Below, in pieces: positions 7,823 to 47,669 of a stretch of DNA of 64,000 nucleotides. The stretch lies in IMG/VR virus record IMGVR_UViG_3300024272_002379; one strand, given 5' to 3'. The first letter of the stretch is position 1. Every line of letters begins with the position of its first letter. This stretch comes from a virus (Duplodnaviria > Caudoviricetes). The notes under the pieces were generated by a model. It saw only the letters and a program-made list of their open reading frames with translations. It was not told where the DNA came from and searched no databases. The translations under genes were made by a program, and so were the position numbers.

Positions 7823-8024
7823 TCATTAATATTACTGGTCCAATGAGTATATATGACCTTAAACTATTTTACTCACTGACATACATATACTAAAAATTAC
7901 CCCTAGTTGAACTTGAAATTACTCGCTGTGTATTTCTTGAAGAGCTAGGGGTAAGTATTTTACCCTTAACTACAATGAGAACTCAGTTTTACGTGCATGA
8001 TGAGCACAGAAAGGATGGTCTATT

Positions 8025-9257
8025 ATGACAACAAATGAAAGAATTCAGGAACTTATCAACTTAGTAAATCGTTATGACTGCTACATTGAGTATATTGATG
8101 ATTATCGTCAATACAAACAGGCAGAACGTGCTAATGGAAATATTGAGGCACGTTTTATCGAAGTATGTTCAGAACTTGGCATGGAAGTAACTTCATCTGA
8201 TTTTCACAATGTTTTATGGAAATCACGCTATGACACCATAGAAGAGGCTGTTAATAAACTTTTACAAGACAAAGGCTTTAATAAGGAGGAAACCAATATG
8301 ACAACAAACACAACACCAGCAAACAACACAAATAAGGAGGAAACAAAGATGATTACTAATACTGCAAGCAAGGCATTGGATATGGTTGAGCACATGAAGA
8401 AAGGTGAAACTACTTACAAGAAATCAAACTTAGCATTAGTGTTACTCAATATCAATACTGTTACAGAAAGATTAATGTATGTATGGGATAATGTCCAGCA
8501 CGTAACTCGCACATCAGATGAACTTTATATTAGCAAGGAGGACTTAGCTCAGTTCTTATTTGATGCAGACATTATTCAGCGTCACTTATCCAAAACAGAA
8601 CTCAAGAAGATTAAAAGACAGAAATTAGTAGATACTCTGTCTACTGCTGTTAATAATCTTATCAAGGCTGGTGTTATTACCCCTATGAAAACTGTAACCT
8701 TTGAAGAAGCTGAAAAGATAGTAGCCGCAATGCCTCCTGTAAAAGAACACACCCATGTTGCATACGGAAAGACTACTTCTATGGATATACTCGAACAGGT
8801 TATTCGCAATGCTAATAAGAACAATGACCGCAACTTCATTAGTGATTGGATGCTCACAAGTATTATCTCTAAGATAGTTACTGGTAACCCATTAAAAGGA
8901 TATGAGGATGGTGAACTTGTAGAATACTACAAAGCATTTACCGAAGCTCAGAAAGATAACATCAATGAGATAAAAGCAGAGTTCTTAAGAAAGAGTAATT
9001 TTATTCCTGTTAAAGATAAACATGATGAGAATAAAAACTCAGGATATATTATTCCAGCAGCATCATTAGTATATGGTAGACATATTTGGTTGGGATATGC
9101 ATGTGTATATCGCTTGAAAAAGGATATGAATGCTAGATACGAAGTATCCCTTAACGGCATCAAGAATACACAGACTGGTGAAACAACATTATTTACACTT
9201 GAAAACAAAGCAACATTATTCGCTAAATTAGACAGCGAGTATGTATTTATTGGGTAA
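8025..9257 (+). CDS. hypothetical protein (410 aa)
   Basis: AGAAAGGATGGT SD; internal in-frame SD+ATG at 8298 and 8349. Confidence 0.8.
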   Translation: MTTNERIQELINLVNRYDCYIEYIDDYRQYKQAERANGNIEARFIEVCSELGMEVTSSDFHNVLWKSRYDTIEEAVNKLLQDKGFNKEETNMTTNTTPANNTNKEETKMITNTASKALDMVEHMKKGETTYKKSNLALVLLNINTVTERLMYVWDNVQHVTRTSDELYISKEDLAQFLFDADIIQRHLSKTELKKIKRQKLVDTLSTAVNNLIKAGVITPMKTVTFEEAEKIVAAMPPVKEHTHVAYGKTTSMDILEQVIRNANKNNDRNFISDWMLTSIISKIVTGNPLKGYEDGELVEYYKAFTEAQKDNINEIKAEFLRKSNFIPVKDKHDENKNSGYIIPAASLVYGRHIWLGYACVYRLKKDMNARYEVSLNGIKNTQTGETTLFTLENKATLFAKLDSEYVFIG

Positions 9258-9311
9258 TAACTAAAAGCGGCCCGTTAGGGCCGCAACTCTACAAGAAAGG
9301 ATGGTACTATT

Positions 9312-9740
9312 ATGAATACAATATTTGACAAGTTTCTTACAATCCAGCACTGTGATTACTATGCTAATCAGGTAGCTAAAAAGCTTAATCTAAAGACTTA
9401 CTCATATTACTGGGATAATTCTTCTCAAATGCAGTTTCCTGGTAATTCTAATATCTTAAACTGGGGTGTTCTTAAATCATATGAGCCGTGGCGTATTAAG
9501 TTTAACTTAACTAAACCAGCTACTATTATGAAGATGGGATTAGAAGAATATGTATCTAAGAACCATGAGTTAAGATTTAATTTAACTATAAAGGGACTAA
9601 GTATTATCTATGTTATACAGTTTTATAATCCTAGTGATGATGGTTCTATGAATGCTGTAATAGATGAGAATACTAAATGTCTCTATGTAGAAGATAAGAC
9701 CACAGGGCAGTATTCTTTTGCCTTCGGCCCTGAGGTATAG
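9312..9740 (+). CDS. hypothetical protein
   Basis: AGAAAGGATGGT SD. Confidence 0.75.
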   Translation: MNTIFDKFLTIQHCDYYANQVAKKLNLKTYSYYWDNSSQMQFPGNSNILNWGVLKSYEPWRIKFNLTKPATIMKMGLEEYVSKNHELRFNLTIKGLSIIYVIQFYNPSDDGSMNAVIDENTKCLYVEDKTTGQYSFAFGPEV

Positions 9741-10534: not shown

Positions 10535-10873
10535 ATGTATATTATGGATGAAAGATTTGTTGCTATTATTGTATCTGCTATTATCGCTATTATATTTGCT
10601 TTAATATATCAGAGTATTGAAGATGCTTTCTTTACTGTGAAATATGATGAAGAAAATGATGAGGATGATACAGTAGAATACGAATTCATTGATGAAGACC
10701 TTTATCCTGGTTGTTTTGTTTATGACACTATTACAGGAGAAATCGTACAATACACTGGTGTTCATCTGGGTGAAGACAATAATAATTACGCTACCTGTGT
10801 ATCTATGAAAGATAATACAGTTCGCTATTATTATTGTTTATTTGAAACTATATTACATGTAAGACAGAAGTGA
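10535..10873 (+). CDS. hypothetical membrane-anchored protein
   Basis: N-terminal TM helix; GGAGG SD. Confidence 0.7.
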   Translation: MYIMDERFVAIIVSAIIAIIFALIYQSIEDAFFTVKYDEENDEDDTVEYEFIDEDLYPGCFVYDTITGEIVQYTGVHLGEDNNNYATCVSMKDNTVRYYYCLFETILHVRQK

Positions 10874-10915
10874 TGAGCTGTCTTTAAAGAAAAAACGAAA
10901 GGTTGGTATACTATT

Positions 10916-13900
10916 ATGACAAACATTAATTTTGAAGATTTAAAGGTAACTGAATTGAAAGAGCTTTGCAGAAAGGCTAACATTAAAGGCTATTCTCGTA
11001 TGAAGAAAGCTGAACTCGTTGATGCTCTCAATAATAATAAAGAGGCTAAGAAAGTTATTCTTAATGAGGCTAAGACATTTGCTAAAAATGAATTAGGACG
11101 TGACTTTGGTAAAGCTGTATCTTTCTGGAAACAGTTACGTAGCATTAAATTCATGACTGCTAACGACTATACTGAAATGGTTGATAACTGGAAAATCCTT
11201 ATCAGTTTATTCCATATCGCTGAAGTTGACGGTACTCAGAATCGTGCTTTAACCGACTCTCTTATGGGTACTGCTGAATCTCTTCGTGATATCTTCTGTC
11301 CTGGAACTGATATCAGTGGTTATTCTGATGACGAACTTAAAGAGTTTATCGAATCATCAATCGAAGAGTTTTCATTATCTGTATTCTCTAAACGCTTAAA
11401 GAAAGAGAATACTGAAATCATTAAAATGAGCATGGACCATATTTCATTTAATGACCAGGGATTGGCATACTTTGACTCTACTAAAGCATCTAAATTCACT
11501 GGCAAAGAGGTTAGAGCTCATAAAACTGATATGCGTATCGTGGAATCATCTGAAGACGGTATCTCTCGTATGCTTATGAGCAGAGGATTATCATCTATCA
11601 CTGTATTTATGGGTAAAACTGCTCAGAAAGAAGAAGAGATGAAACTCATTAATGACTGTAAGAGAAACATCTTCAAAAATGGTTTTGTTGACATCTCTAC
11701 TGGCAAGCATTATATGTTCGCATTCCAGAATCCATCATCATGTCGTAAATCTAACTTCATGTTTGTTGAGGCAAACGACTGGAATGAAGTAGTTTCATTA
11801 TGGCTTGAGATTACTGGTCTTAAGACATGGGAAGAATTCCAGCGTGCATTCTTTGATGATGAGGGTAAAGTAGTTATGGCTAAGTTATTGGCTAGAATTT
11901 CTACTAGAGGTTCTAACTCATTTAACTTATCAAAGATTAGTCCTGTGTGGGCTGATAAGATTGCGAAATCTAATATCAGATATTGTAAAGACCCATCATG
12001 GACAATTAAGAGACCTTTCAAAACAATGAAAGGACCTGGTTGTATGGAAATGCAGGAAGACGTTGAACGTACAGTTACTCCTGGTGACGGTCAGATGATT
12101 GGCTCATTTGAATTCCATGCTCTTATGGCAGTTGCTTTAAGAGTTATCTCAGAGAATGAATACAATGAGTTCTCTATGTTATGGGAGAAAGCCAATAAGG
12201 ACGTTAAGAATGTAAAAGAGGGTTCTCGTCTTTACAAACTTATTAAGAAAATCCCAGGTGTATTCCAGCTTCGTCATGGTGAAAAGAAAGGTATCTGTGT
12301 AAGATACAATATTGAGGCTATTGATGAACTTAAGGATGTAAATGCTATCGTACCAGACAGTGTTCGTAAGTTCGTAGCTGGTGAATGGGATGAGTTCCCA
12401 TTGGAAATTTGTAATTATATCAAGAAGAAAGACCAGTGGGTAGCTTTAAATCCACAGTTCATTCAGGCTCTTGAATATGAAAATCCAAATGCTTTATTAC
12501 CTATTGTTAAGTTCTGGTTTGATTACATGAAAGACTCTCTCAGCGATATTGCTAAAGCTCAGCAGTTCCATGGTATTATTAAGAACTCTGATGATGAGGA
12601 GAATAAAACAATTGCTGGTAATCTTGTTACAGCTATGCGTACTTCATCTGATTTAATTGATGATGCACAGATTTGTAACTGGAGAAAAGACCAGTATCGT
12701 AAATTCATTTCTGATATGAAAATCGGTAGAATATTAGTTCCTGGTCAGTATACTTATATGGTATGTGACCCAGCATTCATTATCAATCAGGTATTTGGTC
12801 TCGATTTACCTCATCTTGCAGAGGGTGAATATTACCACAATGGTAAAGAATGTGAATGTGGATTATTCAGAAGTCCATTAATTCATCCAAGTGAGGCTCA
12901 GAGAGTTAAGTTATCTAACAATGAGGCTTATTGGTACATGCAGGATGTAATCGTCTTTAATGGTAAAGACGGTGCATGGGATAGAATGTCTGGGGCAGAT
13001 TTTGATGGAGATACCTGTGCTGTTATCACAAACGACACTGATTTTGGTAAGATTGTTGTTGACGGTATCAGACAATTATCATTTGATATCTGGGAAGAGG
13101 CACAGAAAGCTGTAAAGAAACCATTTAATATGGATAACTTTATTGAACATCTTGTAACTTCTGCTAAAGTTGATAGAACTGGTGTTATTACCAATTATGC
13201 TTCTAAAGCATTGGATATTAGTAATCATTTAAAGAGTGCTGTATACTTTGCTAAGTTATTAGGCTGTGAGAATATCACATTAATTCACCCACAGGCATTT
13301 GGTGAAAAGCTCGGTAGTGATTTCCAGCCTAAGACTGGTATTATTGATGGTGTGAAGACATTCATGCTCAAAGGATTTGTTGAGGCTAAATATAATTCAC
13401 AGACAAGACGTGTTGAATTTGCAGACACTGGTTTTGTTGGTACATTTGATTTCGATAAAATCCTTGAAATTGCAGATAATTATCTTAACCTTGTAGAGAT
13501 TTTAAGAATCTTACAGGGTAGAGAGATTGATGGTGCTAAGACTGGTGTATATGCAGAGGGTGTATCTGGTAATGACTTCATTGATGCTGTTAAGATTAAA
13601 TTCACTCCTCATGAAATGATTGTACGTCAGGAAACATTGGATAGAGAAGTTGCTTTATCTTCTAAATGTAATGAGTATTGGTCATTATCTCCTCTTGCAC
13701 GTATTCATGATTATGTAGTAATGCATGAAAATGAGATTATGGACTATTTAACAAATGGTTCTAATAAAATCTTCTTACTTCAGTCATTACTTACAGATGA
13801 GGAAGCTAATGCAATGAATACACCATATTTAATGCAGGATGGTAGTTATAAAACTCTTATTGACATTATGGCTATTCGTAAGAAAGCATATAACTCTAAG

Positions 13901-14650
13901 ATTTATGACACTATGAAGAATCTTACAGGTGATGATGCTTCTAATACTTTGAAAGAAATCAAAGATGTTGAGGTTGATGACTTGAATGAATTAGCTACAG
14001 CATTAAATATCAGCACCGAAATCGTAGCTGTTGCAGGCTATATTGCAACATACACTAAAGACAGTAAGCAGGGCGAGGGCTTGACATATGCATGGTTATT
14101 ATTCGATGAATTATTATCAGTATTTAGCCGTGGCAACAAGAAATTTGAGCTTTTCAGATTACCTTCTTCTGTTGAGAATGCTTATATTGAAAATAAGGTT
14201 CTCTATGTCAATGGGAACAAATACATCAACATTAATGCAAATGATTGCAATAACGTTGTAATTCAGGTAATTAATGGTAGACCTTACGGTTTAATCCACA
14301 AGCTTGTGGATAAAGTAGCATCTCCTAGAAAGAGCAACGTTACTTATGGTAGTGCAGTATATACTATTGGTACTTTAGGATTTAAATATCACATTGTAAG
14401 TGAGAATCCTAAAGATGAGTGGAAGAAACTTGTCAAAGAAAATGGTTATGTATTCGACATTACTATGGATGCTACAAATCGTGCAGTTATCAGCATTAAT
14501 GGCAAATCTATTTCTGCTCTTATGAGTGTTGGTGCAAGCTTTGACTTAATGAATAAGAAAGTTAAACTTGTAAATGATATGCAGAATCCTATTAAGGAAA
14601 CAAATGCATCTATTACAAATCTTGCTGTTATTATCATTGGCGAGGCTTAA
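10916..14650 (+). CDS. single-chain two-barrel DNA-dependent RNA polymerase (YonO-like, eukaryotic RdRP-related) with N-terminal Rho-N/HeH domain
   Basis: Catalytic SGADFDGD; RdRP-family motifs DGQMIG, FQLRHGEKKG, RSPLIHP; N-terminal LKVTELKELCRKANIKGYSRMKKAELVDAL. Confidence 0.85.
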   Translation: MTNINFEDLKVTELKELCRKANIKGYSRMKKAELVDALNNNKEAKKVILNEAKTFAKNELGRDFGKAVSFWKQLRSIKFMTANDYTEMVDNWKILISLFHIAEVDGTQNRALTDSLMGTAESLRDIFCPGTDISGYSDDELKEFIESSIEEFSLSVFSKRLKKENTEIIKMSMDHISFNDQGLAYFDSTKASKFTGKEVRAHKTDMRIVESSEDGISRMLMSRGLSSITVFMGKTAQKEEEMKLINDCKRNIFKNGFVDISTGKHYMFAFQNPSSCRKSNFMFVEANDWNEVVSLWLEITGLKTWEEFQRAFFDDEGKVVMAKLLARISTRGSNSFNLSKISPVWADKIAKSNIRYCKDPSWTIKRPFKTMKGPGCMEMQEDVERTVTPGDGQMIGSFEFHALMAVALRVISENEYNEFSMLWEKANKDVKNVKEGSRLYKLIKKIPGVFQLRHGEKKGICVRYNIEAIDELKDVNAIVPDSVRKFVAGEWDEFPLEICNYIKKKDQWVALNPQFIQALEYENPNALLPIVKFWFDYMKDSLSDIAKAQQFHGIIKNSDDEENKTIAGNLVTAMRTSSDLIDDAQICNWRKDQYRKFISDMKIGRILVPGQYTYMVCDPAFIINQVFGLDLPHLAEGEYYHNGKECECGLFRSPLIHPSEAQRVKLSNNEAYWYMQDVIVFNGKDGAWDRMSGADFDGDTCAVITNDTDFGKIVVDGIRQLSFDIWEEAQKAVKKPFNMDNFIEHLVTSAKVDRTGVITNYASKALDISNHLKSAVYFAKLLGCENITLIHPQAFGEKLGSDFQPKTGIIDGVKTFMLKGFVEAKYNSQTRRVEFADTGFVGTFDFDKILEIADNYLNLVEILRILQGREIDGAKTGVYAEGVSGNDFIDAVKIKFTPHEMIVRQETLDREVALSSKCNEYWSLSPLARIHDYVVMHENEIMDYLTNGSNKIFLLQSLLTDEEANAMNTPYLMQDGSYKTLIDIMAIRKKAYNSKIYDTMKNLTGDDASNTLKEIKDVEVDDLNELATALNISTEIVAVAGYIATYTKDSKQGEGLTYAWLLFDELLSVFSRGNKKFELFRLPSSVENAYIENKVLYVNGNKYININANDCNNVVIQVINGRPYGLIHKLVDKVASPRKSNVTYGSAVYTIGTLGFKYHIVSENPKDEWKKLVKENGYVFDITMDATNRAVISINGKSISALMSVGASFDLMNKKVKLVNDMQNPIKETNASITNLAVIIIGEA

Positions 14651-14724
14651 TAATAATTATACTCCCTGTACTGCTAACGCAGTATGGGGAGTATTTGATT
14701 TTATGAAAGGAATGGTAAATAATT

Positions 14725-15000: not shown

Positions 15001-15813
15001 ATGATTACATTAGGCTCTTTTAAAGATATTTCAGATGAATATGATGAGGTATGGCTTATTGTACGTTCATTACAAAATACTCCATATGTTCCAAATACAA
15101 GTGTTTATCACGTTCCAGCATTAAGTCCATCGCCAGAATTGTTTCAAGATTATCTGGCATGGAGAGATGCTGGTATGTGGAATAAAGATATGTTTGAGAA
15201 ACGATATAAGCCACGTTTCTTAGAAGAAATGAAAAATATGATAGCTAAATGTGCATTAAACACACTGAAAAAACGCAGTAAGGATAAGCATATTCTACTT
15301 GCTTGTTATTGTAGAGATGAGGAAATGTGTCATAGAAGTCTTGTTTACCAATTGGTACAAGAAATGCAAGAAACATTTTATTTATTAATAGCAGGTTCTC
15401 GTGAATATGTTAATTATAATGAAATGTGTAAGGTTACTGATTTCTTGCTAAAGAATCAGGTTGCACAGAACAAACGCATTGTGATTGTATCTGGAGGTGC
15501 AAGAGGTGCTGATGCAATGGCAGAAAGATATGCAAAAGAAAGAGGATACCATTGTGAAGTATTTCCTGCTAAATGGTATAAAGATGACGGTAGCTATGAT
15601 AAAAGTGCTGGCTATCGCCGTAATGAAGATATGCATTTATTCTTAGCTGGCCCTTCGGACAAGGAAAGAGGTTGTGTCTGTTTCTGGGATATGACTTCAA
15701 AAGGAACTAAACATAATTTTAGTCTTTCTGTTAAATACGGTAATCCATTAAGAGTTTACGACGTTATTAATCACAGGTTCTTGTCAGAGGAAGAGGTAAA
15801 GCAGTACTCCTAG
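15001..15813 (+). CDS. DUF488-like domain fused to YspA/SLOG (DUF2493-like) domain
   Basis: LSPSPEL...LACYC..E..CHR; then IAGSR...IVSGGARGAD...AGYRRN...FWDMTSKGT. Confidence 0.75.
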   Translation: MITLGSFKDISDEYDEVWLIVRSLQNTPYVPNTSVYHVPALSPSPELFQDYLAWRDAGMWNKDMFEKRYKPRFLEEMKNMIAKCALNTLKKRSKDKHILLACYCRDEEMCHRSLVYQLVQEMQETFYLLIAGSREYVNYNEMCKVTDFLLKNQVAQNKRIVIVSGGARGADAMAERYAKERGYHCEVFPAKWYKDDGSYDKSAGYRRNEDMHLFLAGPSDKERGCVCFWDMTSKGTKHNFSLSVKYGNPLRVYDVINHRFLSEEEVKQYS

Positions 15814-15829
15814 CGGAGTACAATTGGAA

Positions 15830-15875
15830 TAAAAACCACCATCCTTTCTTTTACTACAGGGACTCATCATCCCTT
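15830..15875 (+). ncRNA. putative anti-SD antisense sRNA (copy 1)
   Basis: ACCATCCTTTCTT plus GGGACTCATCATCCC hairpin, complementary to the 8025/9312/10916 leaders; motif repeated at 22829-22888. Confidence 0.5.
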
Positions 15876-15877
15876 AC

Positions 15878-15910
15878 GGGCTGAGCTAATGCTCAGCCCT
15901 CTATTTTTTT
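15878..15910 (+). terminator. intrinsic terminator
   Basis: GGGCTGAGC/GCTCAGCCC hairpin plus T-tract. Confidence 0.7.
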
Positions 15911-15956
15911 AATCAGATTTAATTCGACGTGGCTTTTATACCAGATTGGAGGTTTT

Positions 15957-16223
15957 ATGGAGTACAATAACAGAACTCAATATTATAAAGGAGTTCCTAT
16001 TAAATTAATTATATATACTGAAAAGCATTTTGCACGTTTAAAAGCTAAACGCTTTATATTAGGAGACCCAAAAGCTCATCAAAATATTTGGATACCTAAT
16101 CAATACTTAGAACCTAATGGTTCATTAAAACCTGGTGTCGATATAGATTTCATTTTTAAAAAAGCATATCAGCAAAAGAAATTCTATTACGCACGTATCA
16201 ATATTAATCCAATGTTATGGTAG
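15957..16223 (+). CDS. hypothetical protein
   Basis: GGAGG SD. Confidence 0.7.
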   Translation: MEYNNRTQYYKGVPIKLIIYTEKHFARLKAKRFILGDPKAHQNIWIPNQYLEPNGSLKPGVDIDFIFKKAYQQKKFYYARININPMLW

Positions 16224-19579: not shown

Positions 19580-20098
19580 ATGAATCCTATTAACATCGAA
19601 GAGGCTCTTGAAAAAGATGAAAACATTCAGGCTGGAATGAACGAGTACAAAGCAATGGAACAAAAAGCAAATAGCGTTGCAGAAGAAATATCTTCTACAC
19701 TAATTGAATCTATTGTTAAAGAAGAGGGAAAATTTAATATCAGTACGGCTATTTTAGCAGTTGCTAAATCCTTATCTCATTTAACTTCTTACATGTATGA
19801 TACTGAAGAAGAATTTTTAATTGACGTTAAGAAAGCAAGAACAGCTACTGTATCTGATATCATACCAGCTTTACTTGACCCACAACCATGTGGAAATTGT
19901 GAAGATTGTAAAAATGGTGACCCATTAGATTGTCAGAATCCAGTTGTTAGAGGTGACTATACAACTAGCAGATTTCTACCAATTCTTTGTAATATGATAA
20001 TTGAGTATGACTTATTCAATAAGATATTACATATGCATACGGTAGGTAAGGAGACAAATCTCGACGAGGCTTCTATAAAAGAAAGTGAGGAAAGCTAA
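19580..20098 (+). CDS. hypothetical protein with Cys cluster
   Basis: CGNCEDC...C. Confidence 0.75.
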   Translation: MNPINIEEALEKDENIQAGMNEYKAMEQKANSVAEEISSTLIESIVKEEGKFNISTAILAVAKSLSHLTSYMYDTEEEFLIDVKKARTATVSDIIPALLDPQPCGNCEDCKNGDPLDCQNPVVRGDYTTSRFLPILCNMIIEYDLFNKILHMHTVGKETNLDEASIKESEES

Positions 20099-20622: not shown

Positions 20623-21498
20623 ATGGAATTCAGACCAATGTCATCAGATGAGATTAAGAATCTCTCTACTGAAGAGAAGAAAGAATTTGTTCGTGCTCTA
20701 CTAAGTGAAAGCAGCCACGTAACGGCTGCTTTTATTGACCCAGAAACAGGTAAAAGTTATAACTTTTCTGAGTTAGTAGAGGCGAAAGGCGAAGAAGAGG
20801 CTATTGATATTATTATCAAAGTTCTTGAATCATCAAGTACTAAAACTATGGCTCTCACAGGAGAACAGGTTAATGAACTTCTGTCAAAAGCAAGAAAAGG
20901 CGAATGTACAGAAGACGAATTAGACATGTTAAAAATGATTTTATCATCATCTAAGCTTGAGGATACAGACTTTATGCAGTTCCAGGAAAGCTTTATGGCT
21001 ATGTTGTTAGATTTGACTAATTACGCACAGAAAGAAATCGGTTACAAACCAAGTCTTTATGATGTTGTTACACCAATTTCTATTTTAACCACAGTTAGTG
21101 GATTATTATCTGAAACAAGTTCAATACACAAATATGCACATATGAGTCCTCCTGCATTAACCAATATGGTTAATCAGCTCGGAAAAGATATCTATGATAC
21201 ATGGAAAGCTTCTTGTACATCTGAAGTAGATAAGGAACTTGTTATTTTAGGATTATTCCATTTAATTGAGAAATTAGCCATTGAATGTTCAGTTGAATTA
21301 CATGATGCAAAAGAAATCGCTACTTCATTAAGTGTACCGATTAGAGATATTAGTGATGATAACGAATGTGAATGCTGTGGCGATTGCAATTGTGAAAACG
21401 AAAACCATAATGGTTCCAATATCATCAAGCCTCATGTATTTAATGCATCACAAAATGAAGACGAAGACATGAGAGACTCTCTTAAAGAGGATAATTGA
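20623..21498 (+). CDS. hypothetical protein
   Basis: AAGGAG SD before MEFRPM. Confidence 0.75.
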   Translation: MEFRPMSSDEIKNLSTEEKKEFVRALLSESSHVTAAFIDPETGKSYNFSELVEAKGEEEAIDIIIKVLESSSTKTMALTGEQVNELLSKARKGECTEDELDMLKMILSSSKLEDTDFMQFQESFMAMLLDLTNYAQKEIGYKPSLYDVVTPISILTTVSGLLSETSSIHKYAHMSPPALTNMVNQLGKDIYDTWKASCTSEVDKELVILGLFHLIEKLAIECSVELHDAKEIATSLSVPIRDISDDNECECCGDCNCENENHNGSNIIKPHVFNASQNEDEDMRDSLKEDN

Positions 21499-21523
21499 CA
21501 TCAATAATCATACTCTATATAAT
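21495..21523 (+). promoter_or_regulatory. consensus sigma-A promoter upstream of tmRNA
   Basis: TTGACA-17-TATAAT. Confidence 0.8.
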
Positions 21524-21639: not shown

Positions 21640-22014
21640 GGGCCTGTAATGGTATCGACAGGGGCATGAAAGTTATGAGTTCGTCCGAGTGGTGACGCTA
21701 TCACCAACTTTAAAATTAAACGCAAACAGACCAATGTTAGCGGCTGCCTAGTTGCAGCTACCAAAACACAGTAAGATATTGCTGGTAACTGTTGAGGTTC
21801 AAAAACTAGCATAGTATAAGAAGTTCTCTGTATACAACTTAGTGAACAGAGTGGTGGAGCAAGTAAGAAACCTTACTAGCCTAGTATCTCAGGTCTGGAA
21901 GACGATAGCCAGTGAGTGAAAGCTGAGATGAAATAACTCATTTAAGTTCGTAACGACGTAAAGACTTATAATGAATAATGTTTTTGGACACGGGTTCGAC
22001 TCCCGTCAGGTCCA
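21640..22014 (+). ncRNA. ssrA: tmRNA; tag peptide (A)ANRPMLAAA
   Basis: GGGCCTG..GGTATCGAC 5' end with G3:U70; GACACGGGTTCGACTCCCGTCAGGTCCA 3' end; resume codon GCA at 21722, TAG at 21749. Confidence 0.92.
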
Positions 22015-22042
22015 CTCTATATTACTATAAGGAGACACAAAT

Positions 22043-22828
22043 ATGAAATTTCAAAAGTTTTTGGTAACTGCTCTTCTGTTAACTTTAGTTTTATATTCTA
22101 CATATTATTGGAATGAACAAAGTAAAACAGAAATCATACAAGCCGTTAACCAGTCTAGTAATGAAATATTAGAAAAAGAAAATAAAGTTGAAACCATAGT
22201 AGAAACTGTGTACATAGACAGAAAAGATAGAGACCATGAGAATTACTCTATTCTTCAACTTGATGTAAAAAGTATTTCTCAGCTTCCAGAGCTTCCAACT
22301 GGATGCGAAGTTACATCATTAGCTATTGTTTTAAACTACTTAGGATATGAGGCAGATAAAGAAATTCTTGCTGATACATATTTACCTAAAGGACCAATTG
22401 GAGAGACCCATCCCGACGTGGCTTTTATAGGTAATCCTAGAGATGCTTATGCTTATGGTGCTAACGCACCTGTATTGGTTAAAACTGCAAATGATTATTT
22501 AGCAGATATGAAATCCGACTATAAAGCTCACAATATTACTGGTACAGATTTTAAAGACTTACTTAGTTATGTAAATGATGGTTATCCAGTAATGATATGG
22601 GAAACAATTGGTTTTCTTGAACGTTATCCATCTACAAAATGGGTTATTGACAACAGAGAGTTTCAGTGGTATGCTAATTTCCATTGTATGGTGTTAATTG
22701 GTTATACAGATAGTGACTATATCTTATTAGACCCTCTGGATGAAAAGAATGAAGTTCATTTTGTAAATAAAGAACTTGTTGAAAAACGATATGACGAGCT
22801 TGCAAAGCAGGCTATTGTTATATATTAG
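22043..22828 (+). CDS. membrane-anchored peptidase C39-like protein
   Basis: N-terminal TM; QLPELPTGCEVTSL...HCMVLIGY...DP. Confidence 0.8.
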   Translation: MKFQKFLVTALLLTLVLYSTYYWNEQSKTEIIQAVNQSSNEILEKENKVETIVETVYIDRKDRDHENYSILQLDVKSISQLPELPTGCEVTSLAIVLNYLGYEADKEILADTYLPKGPIGETHPDVAFIGNPRDAYAYGANAPVLVKTANDYLADMKSDYKAHNITGTDFKDLLSYVNDGYPVMIWETIGFLERYPSTKWVIDNREFQWYANFHCMVLIGYTDSDYILLDPLDEKNEVHFVNKELVEKRYDELAKQAIVIY

Positions 22829-22888
22829 GTCATAATTAAGACCATCCTTTTGTAAAAAGATTTTTATACGGGTCTCATCAACCCGTAT
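22829..22888 (+). ncRNA. putative anti-SD/anti-start-codon antisense sRNA (copy 2), directly 5' of tRNA-Pro
   Basis: GTCATAAT-TA-AGACCATCCTTT complementary to 8010-8029; CTCATCA loop complementary to TGATGAG at 7998 and 10871. Confidence 0.55.
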
Positions 22889-22963
22889 CGGAATGTAGTT
22901 CAGCTTGGCTAGAACGCTTGTTTTGGGAACAAGAGGTCGCAGGTTCGAATCCTGTCATTCCGA
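22889..22963 (+). tRNA. tRNA-Pro(UGG)
   Basis: Cloverleaf; CTTGT-TTTGGGA-ACAAG; GGTTCGAATCC. Confidence 0.9.
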
Positions 22964-23172
22964 CTAAGACTTTTTGTTACCTCTAAGGCATTCTCTTATA
23001 CGGGTTCCGTATGGGGGATATAAGGAGCGAGGCGAACCTGAATCTTCCAGTCTCTAAAGAAGAATGAAGTGGCGTTTATGGTTATTATTTCCTTTGTACG
23101 ACAACAAAGAAATTTAATTCTTTTTCATTTTTTGGTGTTCCTTTAGGAATAAAGCTGTCTAACGACAGCTAA

Positions 23173-23252
<80 letters not shown>

Positions 23253-23339
23253 TTTTCAAAACGCCATAGTTTTGGAAAACCTCGTTTGTGTAAAAAATCA
23301 TCGAACCTGGCAGTGTATAGGTTAACTGCCACCCCACAT

Positions 23340-23412
23340 GCCCCAATTGCACAGTTGGTAGTGCGACTGATTTGTAATCAGTAGGTCGGCGGTTCGAGTC
23401 CGTCTTGGGGCT
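23340..23412 (+). tRNA. tRNA-Thr(UGU)
   Basis: ACTGA-TTTGTAA-TCAGT; GGTTCGAGTCC. Confidence 0.88.
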
Positions 23413-23857
23413 TTGTTACATAAGCATTTATGCCCTAAGTAGCAGATAGACATAAATGTGTAACAAAACGATGGTCTGCTATAATCGGTAAAGTTGTTCT
23501 ATCCTGTATAGAGGTTATTGGGTCCGATTCAGGTAAAACTAACGAAACAGGACGATTTATTGGCGTACTTTAGTGAAAGCAGAGTCGAGTAACTAAAGAG
23601 AAAATCAATACCCAGTTCATCATTCTTTCTGGGTTACGTGAGACGTTAGTATGGTCTCGCCGTAAAGATTAAGCTGTGATATAGTATCAAAGCTATATTG
23701 CGGAATCAGGTAGGATATTTATATCAGACCTAACGTATACATAAGTTAAAACGAAGGTAATCCAACAGTGAACCGCAGTACAGAAGGTGGGCCTAGTGTT
23801 TGTAATACAAAGTTAGACCGTGCGGGGCTAATGCATGTTTCTTATGATACGGTATAT

Positions 23858-23940
23858 GCAGCGTTGTGATAATGGTAGTCGGGCGGTCTTGAAAACCGTT
23901 GTGTCGAAAGGCATTGGGAGTTCAAGTCTCTCACGCTGCG
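23858..23940 (+). tRNA. tRNA-Ser(UGA)
   Basis: GCGGT-CTTGAAA-ACCGT; long variable arm; G73. Confidence 0.85.
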
Positions 23941-24079
23941 TTTGGCTAAGCATAGGTAGCCGTACCCAGATGACGAAACGACAGTCGTCATATAACAAGC
24001 CTATTGCAGTTTATCATGTACTAAACATGAAGGCTCTTCTGTTTTAGATGCCAGTCTGTGCAGGAGGGCCGAAGTCTCT

Positions 24080-24168
24080 GGAGTGTTACTCAAGTTGGTG
24101 AAGAGGGAACCCTGCTAAGGTTCTAGCGTCCATTATGGGCGGCGAAGGTTCGAGTCCTTCACACTCCG
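24080..24168 (+). tRNA. tRNA-Ser(GCU)
   Basis: GAACC-CTGCTAA-GGTTC; long variable arm; G73. Confidence 0.88.
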
Positions 24169-24434
24169 TTAAGGCTGAAGTGCAATGCTAAATTTTTATG
24201 TAATAGCACGCCCGTAAAAGACGTTGAGGTTGAGGACAATGAGTATGGAAGTGGCCTTTCGAGGCCTAACACGAAAGTTTGACAATAAGTACCGAATGCA
24301 TAAGATTGACCCATCTAAATGCTACGTCAGTGGGAGGAACTTATGTAAATACGTTGATACTACGAAGAAGTATCTGCTTGGAAAACGAATAGGTCATTCC
24401 CGTTTCTAGCATTTCTGTACGAAAACAGAATTAA

Positions 24435-24528
24435 CGGAAGGTAGCCTAGTGGCTAGGCTTGTTGCGAAAAAACGGGTGAAAGCAACTGGAAACGCCGTTT
24501 GACGTGAGTTCGAATCTCACTCTTCCGT
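24435..24528 (+). ncRNA. tRNA-like RNA with 16-nt anticodon-position loop and possible pseudoknot
   Basis: Acceptor CGGAAGG/TCTTCCG, D-arm, T-arm GTGAG-TTCGAAT-CTCAC; no canonical anticodon loop. Confidence 0.65.
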
Positions 24529-24708
24529 CTATATCATCAATATCAACTTACAACAGCCATGGTAATGTTGTGAGAGCGTCATAGGAAGACGTTCTTCCTA
24601 CTTCAAAGAGACTGGAGTATGCAACAATAGCTGATGAGGCTCATGACCCCATAAATTGCAGGATAAATAAACAGCGTCTGCTGAAAGATGACAAAGATGA
24701 TATTATTT

Positions 24709-24782
24709 GGACCATTAGCTCAGTTGGTCAGAGCGGTCGGCTCATAACCGATTGGTCCTTGGTTCGAGTCCAAGATGGTCCA
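24709..24782 (+). tRNA. tRNA-Ile2/Met(CAU)
   Basis: GGACCAT acceptor; GTCGG-CTCATAA-CCGAT; resembles Firmicutes Ile2. Confidence 0.85.
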
Positions 24783-24832
24783 CTAAGAACTCAATACGCC
24801 TCTTAACAATGCGGACCACGTTGAGTCAAAAA

Positions 24833-24957
24833 CCTGGGGGAGCTGTGGCAAGCAGCCATCTGATAAATGGTGAGTTAAAATATGAAGATACTTTATATCG
24901 GCATATTACTATGGTGAAAACCCATTCATTAACTAGGTTCGATTCCTGGCTCCAGGA
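24833..24957 (+). ncRNA. tRNA-Ile(GAU)-like RNA with ~55-60-nt insertion in the variable region
   Basis: CCTGGGG/CTCCAGG acceptor; CCAT-CTGATAA-ATGG; CTAGG-TTCGATT-CCTGG. Confidence 0.6.
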
Positions 24958-25112
24958 CTATAATGCCTAACGGCATTAATATGGAATAGAAACCCCAATC
25001 AATTCCGTGTCAAACGAATTTCAAGACTACCAGGGGGAACCTAACAAGGCTGTTATTTGTGCTGCTTGTGGCGTTAGGCTGGTAGAAGTAACCTACCCCA
25101 ATTACAATTAAA

Positions 25113-25817
25113 TATTGTGCTTTAAAATGCACACATATATCCTGGTGAAGATTGTTTAATCAACATGCCAGGGCATATCTACAGTAAGTATGAAATAATA
25201 TTCGTTACAGGCTTAGCCAGTATGTTTATTATGTAATACTGAGACGTATGAGAACATGGGATACTTTGTTCGGTAGTGCGTTTAACGGATATAAATCAAG
25301 TCCTAAGGACGTGGTGAAGTTCTGTTATGAAGAAGGGAACCCTTCAAACGATTGATATGGCGTAACTTATACATAACGATTAGTGTGACATGCTTTTGGT
25401 GAACAGAATAGACGCTCTCTGTGAGAGAATAACCCTGGGAACTGGATGAGCTGGTAACTCATTACAGATGGCAGGGAATTACCAAACAAGTTCATTCGCT
25501 GTGATACCGAGACAACTCGGAGTATAACGAAAGCATAAGTCGCAAGTAGCCTAAGGCGATAAAAGAGAATATAACAGTGATAAGATGAATGAATGTATCA
25601 TCAAAACATATTCTGAACGATTCGGGTGAAAGCTGGAGGTGCCAATCCTTCATGGGTTTTAGACTGATAAAAGGCTGTTAACCTTTATCAGTTGGGGCAA
25701 GAAGTATGGAAGTCATGAGCCATGCTCAGACTTGTCTCCCCATTCGCATAATAAATCACAATGTATATTTTATAAGATGAATAAAAGTCTATATGGTGTG
25801 TGTTTTAAAGCACAATA
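25113..25817 (+). ncRNA. large ornate ncRNA (GOLLD/ROOL-like)
   Basis: ~700 nt, ORF-free, closed by a ~20-bp terminal stem TATTGTGCTTTAAAATGCACAC/GTGTGTGTTTTAAAGCACAATA; lies inside a phage tRNA cluster. Confidence 0.55.
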
Positions 25818-25836
25818 CTAACAGCAACGGAAACTA

Positions 25837-25865
25837 TTGACATTCCATTGCTGTTTTTGTATAAT
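25837..25865 (+). promoter_or_regulatory. consensus sigma-A promoter upstream of tRNA-Tyr
   Basis: TTGACA-17-TATAAT. Confidence 0.75.
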
Positions 25866-25877
25866 TACAATCAATTC

Positions 25878-25961
25878 GGGTAGGTAGACCGTAGTTGGTA
25901 GCGGGCCAGACTGTAAATCTGGTGCCTTCGGGCTCCGTTAGTTCGATTCTGACCCTGCCCA
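25878..25961 (+). tRNA. tRNA-Tyr(GUA)
   Basis: CCAGA-CTGTAAA-TCTGG; variable arm GCCTTCGGGC. Confidence 0.88.
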
Positions 25962-26148
25962 TTTACATCAAGGACGGTTGGTGACAATTTATTTGTCAAA
26001 GGGATAAGGGCAATACATGTTACCGCTTATCGTGTAGATGTGTAGTGCAAAGTGTATTGGTGTGAGATTGTTTCCATATTAGAGAAACAGCCAATCTTAA
26101 ATGTGAAATATCTAATTAGAGAAGGATAAAGTAACAGCTTTGTATTAT

Positions 26149-26220
26149 AGAATATTAGCTTTAACGGCAAAAGCACACGGCTGATAACCGTGGTCAGCGG
26201 TTCGACTCCGCTATATTCTG
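26149..26220 (+). tRNA. tRNA-Ile(GAU)
   Basis: CACGG-CTGATAA-CCGTG; GGTTCGACTCC; atypical G discriminator. Confidence 0.8.
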
Positions 26221-26441
26221 TTCTTTGTGAGTGTGACTACTTACAATGACCTAAAACGGCTCGTAAACTTGTAGAAAGGGCAGGCCGACGGGTAAGAGTG
26301 CCGCAAGTACCAAATAACCCTGAGGGTAAAACTGGGTTCGCCTCTTTTTGAGCACGGGATGCAGAAAAGAATAGACATCTCTCAAAGTTTAGGTAAATAA
26401 ACAGCTTAGGTTGGTAACCTCTTAGTCAGAAATAACCATAT

Positions 26442-26514
26442 TGGGTATTAGCTCAGTCGGCAGAGCACATGGCTGTTAACCATGGTGTCGTAGGTTCGAG
26501 CCCTACATACCCAG
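26442..26514 (+). tRNA. tRNA-Asn(GUU)
   Basis: CATGG-CTGTTAA-CCATG. Confidence 0.9.
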
Positions 26515-26816
26515 TTTAAATCAAACTGAAACGAGTCAGGCCCAATCGCTCGATTAAGTATGTGAGGAAAGTGAGGTTGGTTGCCAGCTTACTCAAGACT
26601 TCGTGTGCTTGAGGACAGCCCATTTATGGGTCCCCACTGGTTGTAAAATGTCTTCGCATTTAAAGTGGTGTTGTAAAATACATTCCGCTTAATCTTTAGT
26701 TTGGTTTTATTTGGAGAGACATGTTGTAGCGGTTTCTACGTATGTACAAAGGCTCTGGACAAGTCTTATTTTTTGAAACAGCAAGCGTGCGATTATCAGG
26801 TTAGTCTCTCCAGTAT

Positions 26817-26890
26817 AGCGGGGTAGAGCAGTCAGGCAGCTCGCAAGGCTCATAACCTTGAGGTCATAGGTTCAAATCCTATCCCCGCCA
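26817..26890 (+). tRNA. initiator tRNA-fMet(CAU)
   Basis: A1:C72 mismatch; CAAGG-CTCATAA-CCTTG; GGTTCAAATCC. Confidence 0.88.
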
Positions 26891-26963
26891 CTCATGAAAA
26901 CAAGTGATTGTTTTCTGATATCAGGCATTTATCGGGTTCGAATAGATGTAGGTATTGTTTTTA

Positions 26964-26998
26964 ATCCCCAGTCGAAAGGCTGGGGTATTTTATTTTTG
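26964..26998 (+). terminator. intrinsic terminator ending the tRNA cluster
   Basis: CCCCAGTC-GAAA-GGCTGGGG plus T-rich tail. Confidence 0.7.
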
Positions 26999-27088
26999 TT
27001 GACATTATCTAATCGCTGTGATATATAGTATTTATAGGCATAGAGAGCTTATTACAGTATATTTCACTTAGAGAGGAGATTATCAATC

Positions 27089-27367: not shown

Positions 27368-27442
27368 TTAAAGTACATATAAGACAGGACATGTTTCGCA
27401 AGATTCATGTCCTGTTTTTGTTTTATACAAAGGAGGTAACAA

Positions 27443-27859
27443 ATGAAATCATTAGAACAAATCAAAGAAAGTCAGAGACTTATAATTTCAAGAACAGGTG
27501 TAGACGGTGGCATGGGCGAGATTCACATGCCACAATGGAAAGGTAGCGTTATTTGGAGTTTTGGTGGTGGTTGGGACCATGTTTCGGTATGCCCATACAA
27601 GTCCAACGTAACACCATCATGGGACGATATGTGCAGATTAAAAGACATTTTCTTCAATGATGATGAATGTGTCGTACAGTATCATCCACCTAAAACTGAA
27701 TATGTAAATAATGCAACTAACTGTTTGCATTTATGGAGACCAATTGACGTAGAAATGCCACAACCACCATCTATTATGGTAGGTATTAAAAAAGGCCAGA
27801 GTATGGCAAGTGCAAGAACCGAAATAAACAAATTATACGAGGAGGCATATCATGAATAA
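27443..27859 (+). CDS. conserved phage protein (DUF7694-like)
   Basis: GWDHVSV...PSWDDMC..KDIFF...YHP...YVN...CLHLW. Confidence 0.75.
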   Translation: MKSLEQIKESQRLIISRTGVDGGMGEIHMPQWKGSVIWSFGGGWDHVSVCPYKSNVTPSWDDMCRLKDIFFNDDECVVQYHPPKTEYVNNATNCLHLWRPIDVEMPQPPSIMVGIKKGQSMASARTEINKLYEEAYHE

Positions 27860-46990: not shown

Positions 46991-47669
46991 AATAAAAGAA
47001 ATGGCTAAACTTTTCTTGCATTTGCCTATACAAGAAGACAAACATCTACATCCGTTACTATGTGTTCACCATCCTTTTTTAGCTAGTTGTACAACATGTA
47101 TTAATCATGAATTTGTTAATCTCTTAGAAAATCCAGAAAGGTTATCAGATTTTCATGAGTACATGGAAGAACAAATAGATAAAGGTGATTTATGTAAGAT
47201 TTATGTTCTTATTAGAAAACCATATCGTTTAACCTTTTTAAAGCACTGTGAACCATATTTATCACCAAAAGATTTAGCTGAATATTTTGCAGATGCATGG
47301 GTTGCAAGCGAAAACCCAAATCAGGATGCAAATTGTCCAATTCCGTATCTAGTCAGAATGTTTAAGAAATGTAGCAAAGAACATCTTATGACAGAAGAAG
47401 ATTACGAAGTATATCAATCATTGCCTGAAACATTTACCATATATCGTGGTGTTGCAGTTGGAAGAAATCCAAAAGGATTATCATGGACTCAAAATTTCGA
47501 AAAAGCAAAATGGTTTTCTGAAAGATTTGACAGAGAAGATAAAAAAGGTTATATTCAGAAAGCAACAGCAAAGAAAGAAGATGTTCTAGCATACTTTAAT
47601 ACACGAGGAGAAGATGAAATCGTATATGACAGTAGAAAACTAGAAATATCTGTTTTTGAAGAGGTGTAA
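46971..47669 (+). CDS. putative ADP-ribosyltransferase-fold protein (R-S-E type)
   Basis: TIYRGV...GLSWT...RGEDEIV. Confidence 0.55.
   Translation: METNLNKIKEMAKLFLHLPIQEDKHLHPLLCVHHPFLASCTTCINHEFVNLLENPERLSDFHEYMEEQIDKGDLCKIYVLIRKPYRLTFLKHCEPYLSPKDLAEYFADAWVASENPNQDANCPIPYLVRMFKKCSKEHLMTEEDYEVYQSLPETFTIYRGVAVGRNPKGLSWTQNFEKAKWFSERFDREDKKGYIQKATAKKEDVLAYFNTRGEDEIVYDSRKLEISVFEEV

Follow-up and report, generated by a model that had tools for sequence, protein, structure and literature searches.

The 60 bases that separate a peptidase gene from tRNA-Pro in a large uncultured phage (positions 22829-22888, here called copy 2) form a real, conserved feature that co-evolves with the leaders of early genes. 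We lean towards reading them as one of two paralogous plus-strand anti-leader modules, which together would act as a two-site antisense repressor of early-gene translation. Most likely, these modules switch off translation of a set of early genes that includes the phage RNA polymerase (RNAP), a regulatory role that we read from the sequence. By its predicted design, each module combines a single-stranded stretch complementary to Shine-Dalgarno (SD) sequences, which in copy 2 also covers a start codon, with a downstream hairpin carrying a [C/U]UCAUCA loop.

The window, i.e. the whole stretch of 64,000 nucleotides analyzed here, derives from an uncultured gut phage of ~210 kb. It is AT-rich (35% GC), and from ~5.1 kb onward all of its genes lie on the plus strand. 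Gut-metagenome contigs of ~209-214 kb carry proteins identical or related to those of the window, while a public phage collection showed similarity to it at the tRNA level only and single-protein scans of viral contigs gave no match. Syntenic loci of the relatives (labeled L001 and so on) were obtained via the peptidase and polymerase proteins. PHROGs and Pfam returned no function for genes 8025, 9312, 6749, 14725 and 5146. The landmarks of the window that matter for copy 2 are the following:

Gene 8025, plus strand: 410 aa, no family, preceded by several small genes.
Gene 9312, plus strand: lies between gene 8025 and the small ORF 10535-10873.
10916-14650, plus strand: YonO/RdRP-type single-subunit RNA polymerase with a Rho_N domain, 1244 aa.
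15001-15813, plus strand: DUF488-YAcAr gene, 3' of the RNAP gene and preceded by an 87-aa gene.
21495-21523, plus strand: sigma-70-type promoter TTGACA-17-TATAAT (12/12), heading the unit of tmRNA, C39 peptidase, copy 2 and tRNA array.
21640-22017, plus strand: tmRNA, after a further gene block 3' of the DUF488-YAcAr gene.
22043-22828, plus strand: Peptidase_C39_2 gene, of which copy 2 is the 3' untranslated tail.
22829-22850, plus strand: anti-TIR stretch of copy 2, reading GTCATAAT-TA-AGACCATCCTTT, with GTCATAAT as the anti-ATG and AGACCATCCTTT as the anti-SD part.
22866-22888, plus strand: hairpin of copy 2, 8 bp with the 7-nt loop CUCAUCA, composed of ATACGGGT (22866-22873), CTCATCA (22874-22880) and ACCCGTAT (22881-22888).
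22889-22964, plus strand: tRNA-Pro(UGG), the first tRNA of the array.

The tRNA array also holds a ROOL RNA (25117-25810). The tag encoded by the phage tmRNA is ANRPMLAAA, and tag sequences differ widely between relatives. Several tRNA-like ARAGORN calls in relatives have odd anticodon loops, namely L020 22839-22933 ('ttag', 4-base), L016 22469-22544 ('ccct', 4-base) and L012 22071-22164 ('ag', 2-base); these could be frameshift or suppressor tRNAs, or mis-calls.

A sequence-only reading of this DNA had claimed that 22829-22850 is complementary, over 20 bp with a 2-nt bulge, to the SD and ATG of gene 8025. This is correct: its reverse complement matches positions 8010-8029 (AAAGGATGGTCT|ATTATGAC) at 20/20 bases, in two segments of 12 and 8 around the bulge. 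The pattern AAAGGATGGTCT-N0-2-ATTATGAC occurs at only two sites in the 64 kb, the gene 8025 leader and the complement of copy 2, and at none in 100 dinucleotide shuffles. The same stretch is less fully complementary to the SD/ATG regions of genes 10916, 14725, 5146 and 9312. ARAGORN and Rfam agree on 22889 as the start of tRNA-Pro, so that copy 2 abuts the tRNA directly, as the same reading had noted. Because the hairpin end at 22888 adjoins this start, general tRNA biology leads us to expect RNase P cleavage at 22888/22889, and the hairpin would then form the 3' terminus of the released RNA.

The complementarity behind the second contact proposed earlier, between the loop CTCATCA and TGATGAG motifs in the leaders of gene 8025 and of the polymerase gene, is also borne out, and in both leaders the motif sits in a hairpin:

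7993-8029, plus strand: gene 8025 leader, with hairpin GUGC-AUGAUGA-GCAC (7993-8007) followed by SD and AUG (8010-8027).
9267-9314, plus strand: gene 9312 leader, with a GC-rich hairpin and AAGAAAGGATGGT, a 13-nt complement of the second module (copy 1).
10861-10918, plus strand: RNAP gene leader, with hairpin 10861-10884 (loop AAGUGAUGAG), SD at 10897-10907 and AUG at 10916.

In the polymerase leader, TGATGAG (10871-10877) lies wholly inside the 10-nt loop of a 7-bp hairpin. In the gene 8025 leader (7998-8004), its final G is the first stem base of the GTGC/GCAC hairpin, which has only 4 bp and differs from the minimum-energy fold predicted there. Across nine phages, all six predicted pairs of the RNAP leader hairpin show compensatory changes around an invariant TGATGA, and the 8025-type leaders of relatives keep (N)TGATGA between GGGC/GCCC-type stems. 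CUCAUCA and (N)UGAUGA(G) loops, as a kissing interaction would need, are presented on hairpins with covarying stems in both partners, though with its 4 bp the hairpin of gene 8025 is a weak one.

In the window, L012, L025 and L026, a conserved upstream ORF of ~100 aa uses the first TGA in the loop of the RNAP leader as its stop codon, so that in these four phages part of the loop motif has another reason to persist. The stop of ORF 10535-10873 within the loop likewise places the RNAP leader hairpin in a position for translational coupling, and suggests either such coupling or that ribosomes terminating there unfold the hairpin. L009, L010, L011 and L020 keep the hairpin with no called gene ending there (in L009 the ORFs were examined directly). 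The small ORF itself is conserved among four phages (98-114 aa, hydrophobic N-terminus, 28-39% identity).

Self-cleaving ribozymes were seen in the early region of relatives, with none in the window: Pistol ribozymes in L009 (2712-2771), L020 (2932-2995) and L025 (1477-1540), and a Twister-P5 ribozyme in L020 (3329-3403). A hammerhead III-like element in L026 (6666-6721) scored 20.4 bits, below threshold, and similar CTGATGA...CGAAAC sequences occur in L009, L011, L020 and L025. This hammerhead-like ribozyme lies just 5' of the 8025-type leader hairpin in the relatives.

A search with the loop motif revealed a second plus-strand copy of the same architecture at 15836-15874 (copy 1). It is located at the 3' end of the RNAP operon, in the 3'UTR of the DUF488 gene:

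15836-15852, plus strand: anti-SD stretch of copy 1, CCACCATCCTTTCTTTT, in the RNAP-operon 3'UTR.
15858-15874, plus strand: hairpin of copy 1, AGGGA-CUCAUCA-UCCCU.
15878-15910, plus strand: intrinsic terminator ending the RNAP-operon transcript, directly 3' of copy 1.

Copy 1 contains no complement of an ATG, i.e. there is no ATG on its minus strand. Both copies and their orthologues align to one consensus, ACCATCCTTTCTT-N (spacer)-GGGn-CTCATCA-nCCC. An occurrence of CCATCCTTTTTT at 47069 was discarded as a further copy since it sits within coding sequence and is best taken as a chance match.

The complementarity is directed at a defined set of genes, as an unbiased scan of the whole window confirmed. 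When the 114 predicted ribosome sites were ranked, the top five for copy 2 were those of genes 8025, 10916, 14725, 5146 and 9312, all plus-strand genes of the 5-15 kb block, and early genes are separated from the rest with p = 0.004 for copy 2 and p = 0.003 for copy 1 (Mann-Whitney). Cofolding with early leaders yielded binding energies of -16 to -26 kcal/mol (z of -4.5 to -7), with -25.8 kcal/mol (z = -7.0) for copy 2 and gene 8025. The partial match to the RNAP leader, which had also been proposed from the sequence, is borne out by -20.9 kcal/mol (z = -5.6). Copy 1 binds the RNAP leader with a ddG of -13.9 (z = -3.7), and the leaders of 9312 and 8025 better still. In the cofold models pairing involves the linear parts, and both hairpins keep their fold. 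Canonical GGAGG sites of later genes gave z ~ 0, like shuffled controls, and the ribosome site of the peptidase gene itself gave z = 0, which argues against copy 2 being a generic anti-SD or a mimic of the 16S tail. What copy 2 matches is the SD variant of the early genes (GGATGG/GGTTGG) together with their ATTATGA start context.

We further built a covariance model (R1) from the plus-strand modules only. R1 found exactly two plus-strand matches in the window (E ~ 1e-10), and on its minus strand only the leaders of 9312, 8025 and 10916. Across the relatives, 22 of 24 minus-strand matches at E <= 1 end just 5' of a called early-gene or RNAP start.

Copies 1 and 2 are syntenic in relatives whose polymerases share 54-82% identity with that of the window (lowest ~54-60%). 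Copy 1 is found at the end of the RNAP operon in L001, L009, L010, L011, L012, L020, L025 and L004/L026, in L010 directly after the RNAP stop codon, and in every case a terminator comes next, with a conserved motif, TTCGACGWGGCT, behind it. Copy 2 precedes the first tRNA in L001, L004/L026, L011, L012, L016, L020 and L025, with stems ATACGGGT, GCGGGT, GCGGGA or GCGGG among relatives. The distant relatives L015, L016, L023 and L024 showed no clear leader/anti-leader pairs, the copy 2 homologue of L016 being the exception. The TCATCA core of the module loops is invariant, apart from copy 2 of L009. In the module hairpins, 93% of cells are paired vs 75% in shuffles, and double-sided changes were counted in 12 cells vs 4.1 expected, a value reached by 0/500 shuffles; sliding the register lowers pairing to 35-52%. 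Copy 1 of L004/L026 and of L025 has a weak or different stem, and erosion is also seen in copy 2 of L009, where the loop is UAUC, in L001, which lacks the anti-ATG, and in L007, which retains the hairpin alone, flush with tRNA-Pro.

These eroded forms bear on a simpler explanation, in which the hairpin is a processing or stability element only, either insulating tRNA folding or, once RNase P has cut, protecting the peptidase mRNA at its 3' end, with the likeness to inverted leaders being a relic of an inverted duplication. The isolated hairpin of L007 and the UAUC tetraloop of L009 would fit it, as would the hairpins found before other tRNAs of the array (e.g. 23153-23170 before tRNA-Leu) and the number of antisense 11-mer matches between the whole array (22829-27088) and the rest of the window, which is that expected by chance (110 vs 101 +/- 14). 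The last result also led us to drop the idea that every spacer of the tRNA array carries an anti-TIR stretch. A relic, however, would neither keep its loop unchanged and complementary to those of the leaders at two separate loci over ~50% protein divergence, nor stay complementary to the diverging leaders of each individual phage. We therefore judge this explanation improbable.

Two further observations were made within the array. An isolated spacer match of 23086-23097 to 63834 was rejected as unsupported, and TTTGTTACCTC (22973-22983, just 3' of tRNA-Pro) is an 11-nt complement of the SD/start of gene 27443 (27433-27443), a single match at chance frequency. The spacer between tRNA-Pro and tRNA-Leu (23040-23112) is a conserved structured segment, GAATGAAGTGGCGTTTATG followed by a hairpin around TTGTACGACAACAA, whose stem covaries in L001, L007 and L010 and which matches no Rfam family.

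The tracking of each phage's own leaders by its anti-TIR stretch is seen in the following pairs:

Window: anti-TIR AGACCATCC, matching leader GGATGGTCT.
L026/L004, copy 2: anti-TIR TAATCCTTTCT...CATAG, matching polymerase leader TAGAAAGGATTA...ACTATG.
L025, copy 2: matching the 8025-type leader GAAAGGAGTCTxTATG at 15/16.
L010, copy 1: anti-TIR ATATCATCCTTT, matching leader AAAGGATGATAT.
L012, L025 and L026, copy 1: following the RNAP leader variants of these phages and complementing both halves of a split polymerase SD (GAAAGG ... GGTGAxx).

Co-varying examples are GGATTA/TAATCC in L026, GAAAGGAGTCT in L025 and GGATGAT/ATCATCC in L010. To quantify this, the anti-TIR segment of each phage was paired with the polymerase and 8025 ribosome sites of every phage and the duplex energies were calculated; the test was restricted to this segment because long internal loops inflate duplexfold matrices of the whole element. 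Cognate pairs were more stable than non-cognate ones for copy 2 (-24.6 vs -19.6 kcal/mol, permutation p = 0.0006) and for copy 1 (-21.7 vs -18.0 kcal/mol, permutation p = 0.003), p values that are indicative given that they stem from 7-8 phages related to one another. The loop-loop contact shows little true covariation since the loop core is invariant; by inspection, the positions flanking the loop core can pair in only about one half to three quarters of the phages, and one double change was found in L026 (8025-type leader TGATGAA, copy 1 TTCATCA). The check for covariation in related phages that had been suggested from the sequence came out in favor of the pairing, both for the stems of modules and leaders and for the anti-TIR stretches. 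Concerted evolution via repeated inverted duplication or gene conversion, and not selection for pairing, could in principle account for it.

As the same double-stranded motif is found in both orientations, one might also think of sites acting at the level of DNA, that is, for binding, nicking or recombination by inverted repeats flanking the early region, or as single-strand hairpin promoters used by the phage polymerase, hairpin promoters being known from the virion RNAP of phage N4. The G-U wobbles, 7 by plus-strand rules and 10 by minus-strand rules, are uninformative overall as a strand test and leave the minus strand possible. We nevertheless consider a DNA-level role very unlikely: the loop is conserved and the arms vary, where a dimeric operator would show the reverse; co-varying SD or anti-SD stretches are physically joined to the motif; each locus keeps a single orientation in all assemblies; and the copy 1 stem of L009, the only one that clearly requires plus-strand RNA, pairs in no other form.

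The genomic context points to the plus strand for both modules: the 12/12 promoter heads the unit of copy 2, a plus-strand terminator follows copy 1 and all neighboring genes are plus-strand genes, while upstream of the two copies the minus strand showed no promoter-like site. The tmRNA and peptidase genes are missing from L010 and L012, where a promoter and a [C/T]TCATCA hairpin are nevertheless kept before the tRNAs. In L012, the promoter, a non-coding stretch of ~190 nt that includes the module, and tRNA-Pro follow one another, an arrangement that looks like a stand-alone RNA unit ending at the tRNA. The opposite strand had been offered as an alternative in the sequence-only reading, as a minus-strand leader driving the minigene ATG-ACC-TAA, or else an antisense transcript into the peptidase gene. 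Such a leader does read as hairpin, SD, ATG and stop in the window, and folds at -16.9 kcal/mol (z = -3.9). The minigene is not conserved, however, with no ATG in L001 and a length of 2 to 5 codons in the other relatives; copy 1 has no ATG at all, and tRNA-Pro or a terminator occupies the position where a promoter would be expected. We thus find this alternative hardly credible. A K-turn or C/D-box reading of UGAUGA was also discarded, as there is no D box and minus-strand snoRNA matches are at noise level.

The motif TTCGACGWGGCT occurs in the window at 15920-15934 and 20057-20071, and in relatives at L001 4318, L004 2532, L007 3844, L010 13869, L011 15298, L012 14952, L016 16305, L020 14719, L025 15137 and L026 15683. 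It lies 15-35 nt 5' of the SD of the first gene past the RNAP-operon terminator, is repeated before another gene start, and could serve the phage polymerase as a promoter; at 22414, within the peptidase gene, there is a further copy that the coding sequence probably maintains. Hairpins with C-G-closed UAGC/UAAC/UAAU/UAUC tetraloops recur as well (15804-15821, 14659-14694, 15878-15899, 9267-9284 and 23153-23170). One of them spans the DUF488 stop codon and covaries in all relatives, and most terminators carry the same tetraloop type.

From these data we infer a model of how the modules may be transcribed and processed, how they may pair in vivo and in which direction they may regulate. Copy 1 would be made as the 3'UTR of the RNAP operon and end at the intrinsic terminator, while copy 2 would be the tail of the tmRNA-peptidase transcript, started from the consensus host-type promoter, with its 3' end freed when RNase P cuts off tRNA-Pro. 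The module loop would then kiss the UGAUGA loop of a leader (6-8 possible pairs), and pairing would extend across SD and AUG, over 12 + 8 bp in the case of gene 8025. This would block 30S binding, and RNase III, for which a 12 + 8 bp duplex is long enough, may also cut the duplex of ~20 bp. As a result, the early genes of the 5-15 kb block (5146, 8025, 9312, 10916/RNAP and 14725) would be shut off or come under negative feedback. Since copy 1 is the last segment transcribed in the early/polymerase operon, its feedback would be a delayed one.

Whether a discrete small RNA carries out this pairing is a separate matter. The data are equally compatible with cis action or action inside long mRNAs, and the module may act within long mRNAs, as a 3'UTR in cis or in trans, and not as a discrete sRNA. 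In the strict form of this explanation, pairing would be cis-only or confined to long mRNAs: the polymerase operon mRNA folds back so that its 3'UTR pairs with its own ribosome site, copy 2 acts simply as the end of the peptidase mRNA, and RNase P has an incidental part, there being no separate small RNA linked to the tRNA. It is favored by the match of copy 1 to the leader of the operon that carries it as a 3'UTR, with the most direct arrangement in L010, together with the undefined 5' end of copy 2 and the precedent of icaR, in which a 3'UTR anti-SD pairs with the SD of the same mRNA (PMC3868564). Against it, copy 2 shows no match to the ribosome site of its own gene and has its best targets 12-15 kb away, the terminator-like hairpin at 14659-14694 may part RNAP transcripts from copy 1, and the L012 layout resembles a stand-alone unit. 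On balance, this strict form appears unlikely to us. Of the bipartite kissing-loop repressor first proposed from the sequence, the pairing logic has been strengthened by conservation, the second copy, hairpin covariation, leader co-variation and specificity, whereas the discrete sRNA has not, as the element may act within long mRNAs. Nothing points to the lysis/carrier-state switch suggested along with it.

The module is best described, from sequence comparison, as antisense translational control outside the C4 RNA family. Rfam contains no family that matches the modules or the leader hairpins, and the C4 model (RF01695) had no match at gathering score in the window and none at E <= 10 in 22760-22970 or 15780-15960. 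The likeness to P1 C4 or P4 CI RNA that had been pointed out therefore does not extend to family membership, and the genetic layout differs too. It does extend to the principle, as C4 RNA of P1/P7 is also a phage antisense RNA with exposed segments complementary to a phage ribosome-site region. Maturation of C4 involves RNase P (Hartmann et al. 1995, cited in PMC11143913). In C4, the regulator itself adopts a tRNA-like fold, whereas here a genuine tRNA provides the predicted RNase P site; C4 uses two loops, in place of the one loop and the linear anti-SD/anti-AUG stretch seen here; and its target is an antirepressor, as opposed to early lytic genes including RNAP. Moreover, the C4 regulator lies upstream of its target in the same operon, while the modules lie downstream of and far from theirs, copy 2 by 12-15 kb and under another promoter, copy 1 at the operon 3' end. 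P4 CI RNA differs in acting by transcription termination.

For copy 1 and the RNAP leader, the best analogues are two bacterial mRNAs. In icaR of Staphylococcus aureus, pairing of the 3'UTR with the SD blocks initiation and forms an RNase III substrate (PMC3868564), and a 5'/3'-UTR interaction has been described for hbs of B. subtilis (PMC5737220). The phage modules differ from both in occurring as two copies with a target set and an additional hairpin-loop contact, and in that copy 2 leaves its own mRNA alone. A family of early genes shut off at translation initiation regions also recalls RegA of T4, a translational repressor of early mRNAs (reviewed in PMC3014915), with the difference that RegA is a protein and an RNA is proposed here. 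Complementary loops of 6-8 nt could make the first contact before duplex extension, as in the kissing-loop antisense control of ColE1 (RNA I/RNA II) and R1 (CopA/CopT). Those RNAs are cis-encoded and fully complementary, in contrast to the trans-encoded, paralogous and partially complementary modules. The 3'ETS-leuZ RNA of E. coli is a 3' spacer and, aided by Hfq, serves as a sponge for sRNAs. Like it, copy 2 would be excised from a tRNA precursor by the tRNA-processing machinery, yet as a 5' leader acting on mRNAs; regulatory RNA from a tRNA-precursor spacer, in the form of that sponge, has been reported (bioRxiv 10.1101/2021.04.25.441314). For phages with YonO-type polymerases, the full-text literature search turned up no account of a module of this kind.

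We tentatively propose, as a possibility short of an even chance, that in this clade of ~210-kb gut phages an RNA, and not a RegA-like protein, shuts off the early regulon. The UGAUGA loop and the variant SD (GGAUGG) would serve as the address, and modules placed at the ends of two transcription units, one closed by a terminator and the other by RNase P, would act as a delay timer or as feedback on polymerase synthesis. If true, a large uncultured phage would time or limit its own YonO-type RNA polymerase and neighboring early proteins by RNA-RNA pairing alone, and tRNA processing would set a natural regulatory RNA free from a tRNA array, on the principle that synthetic tRNA-spaced guide arrays use. 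The two-part address of loop and variant SD is short, co-evolves with its targets and is testable by compensatory mutation, and would allow the early regulons of uncultured phages to be predicted from nothing but their sequence.
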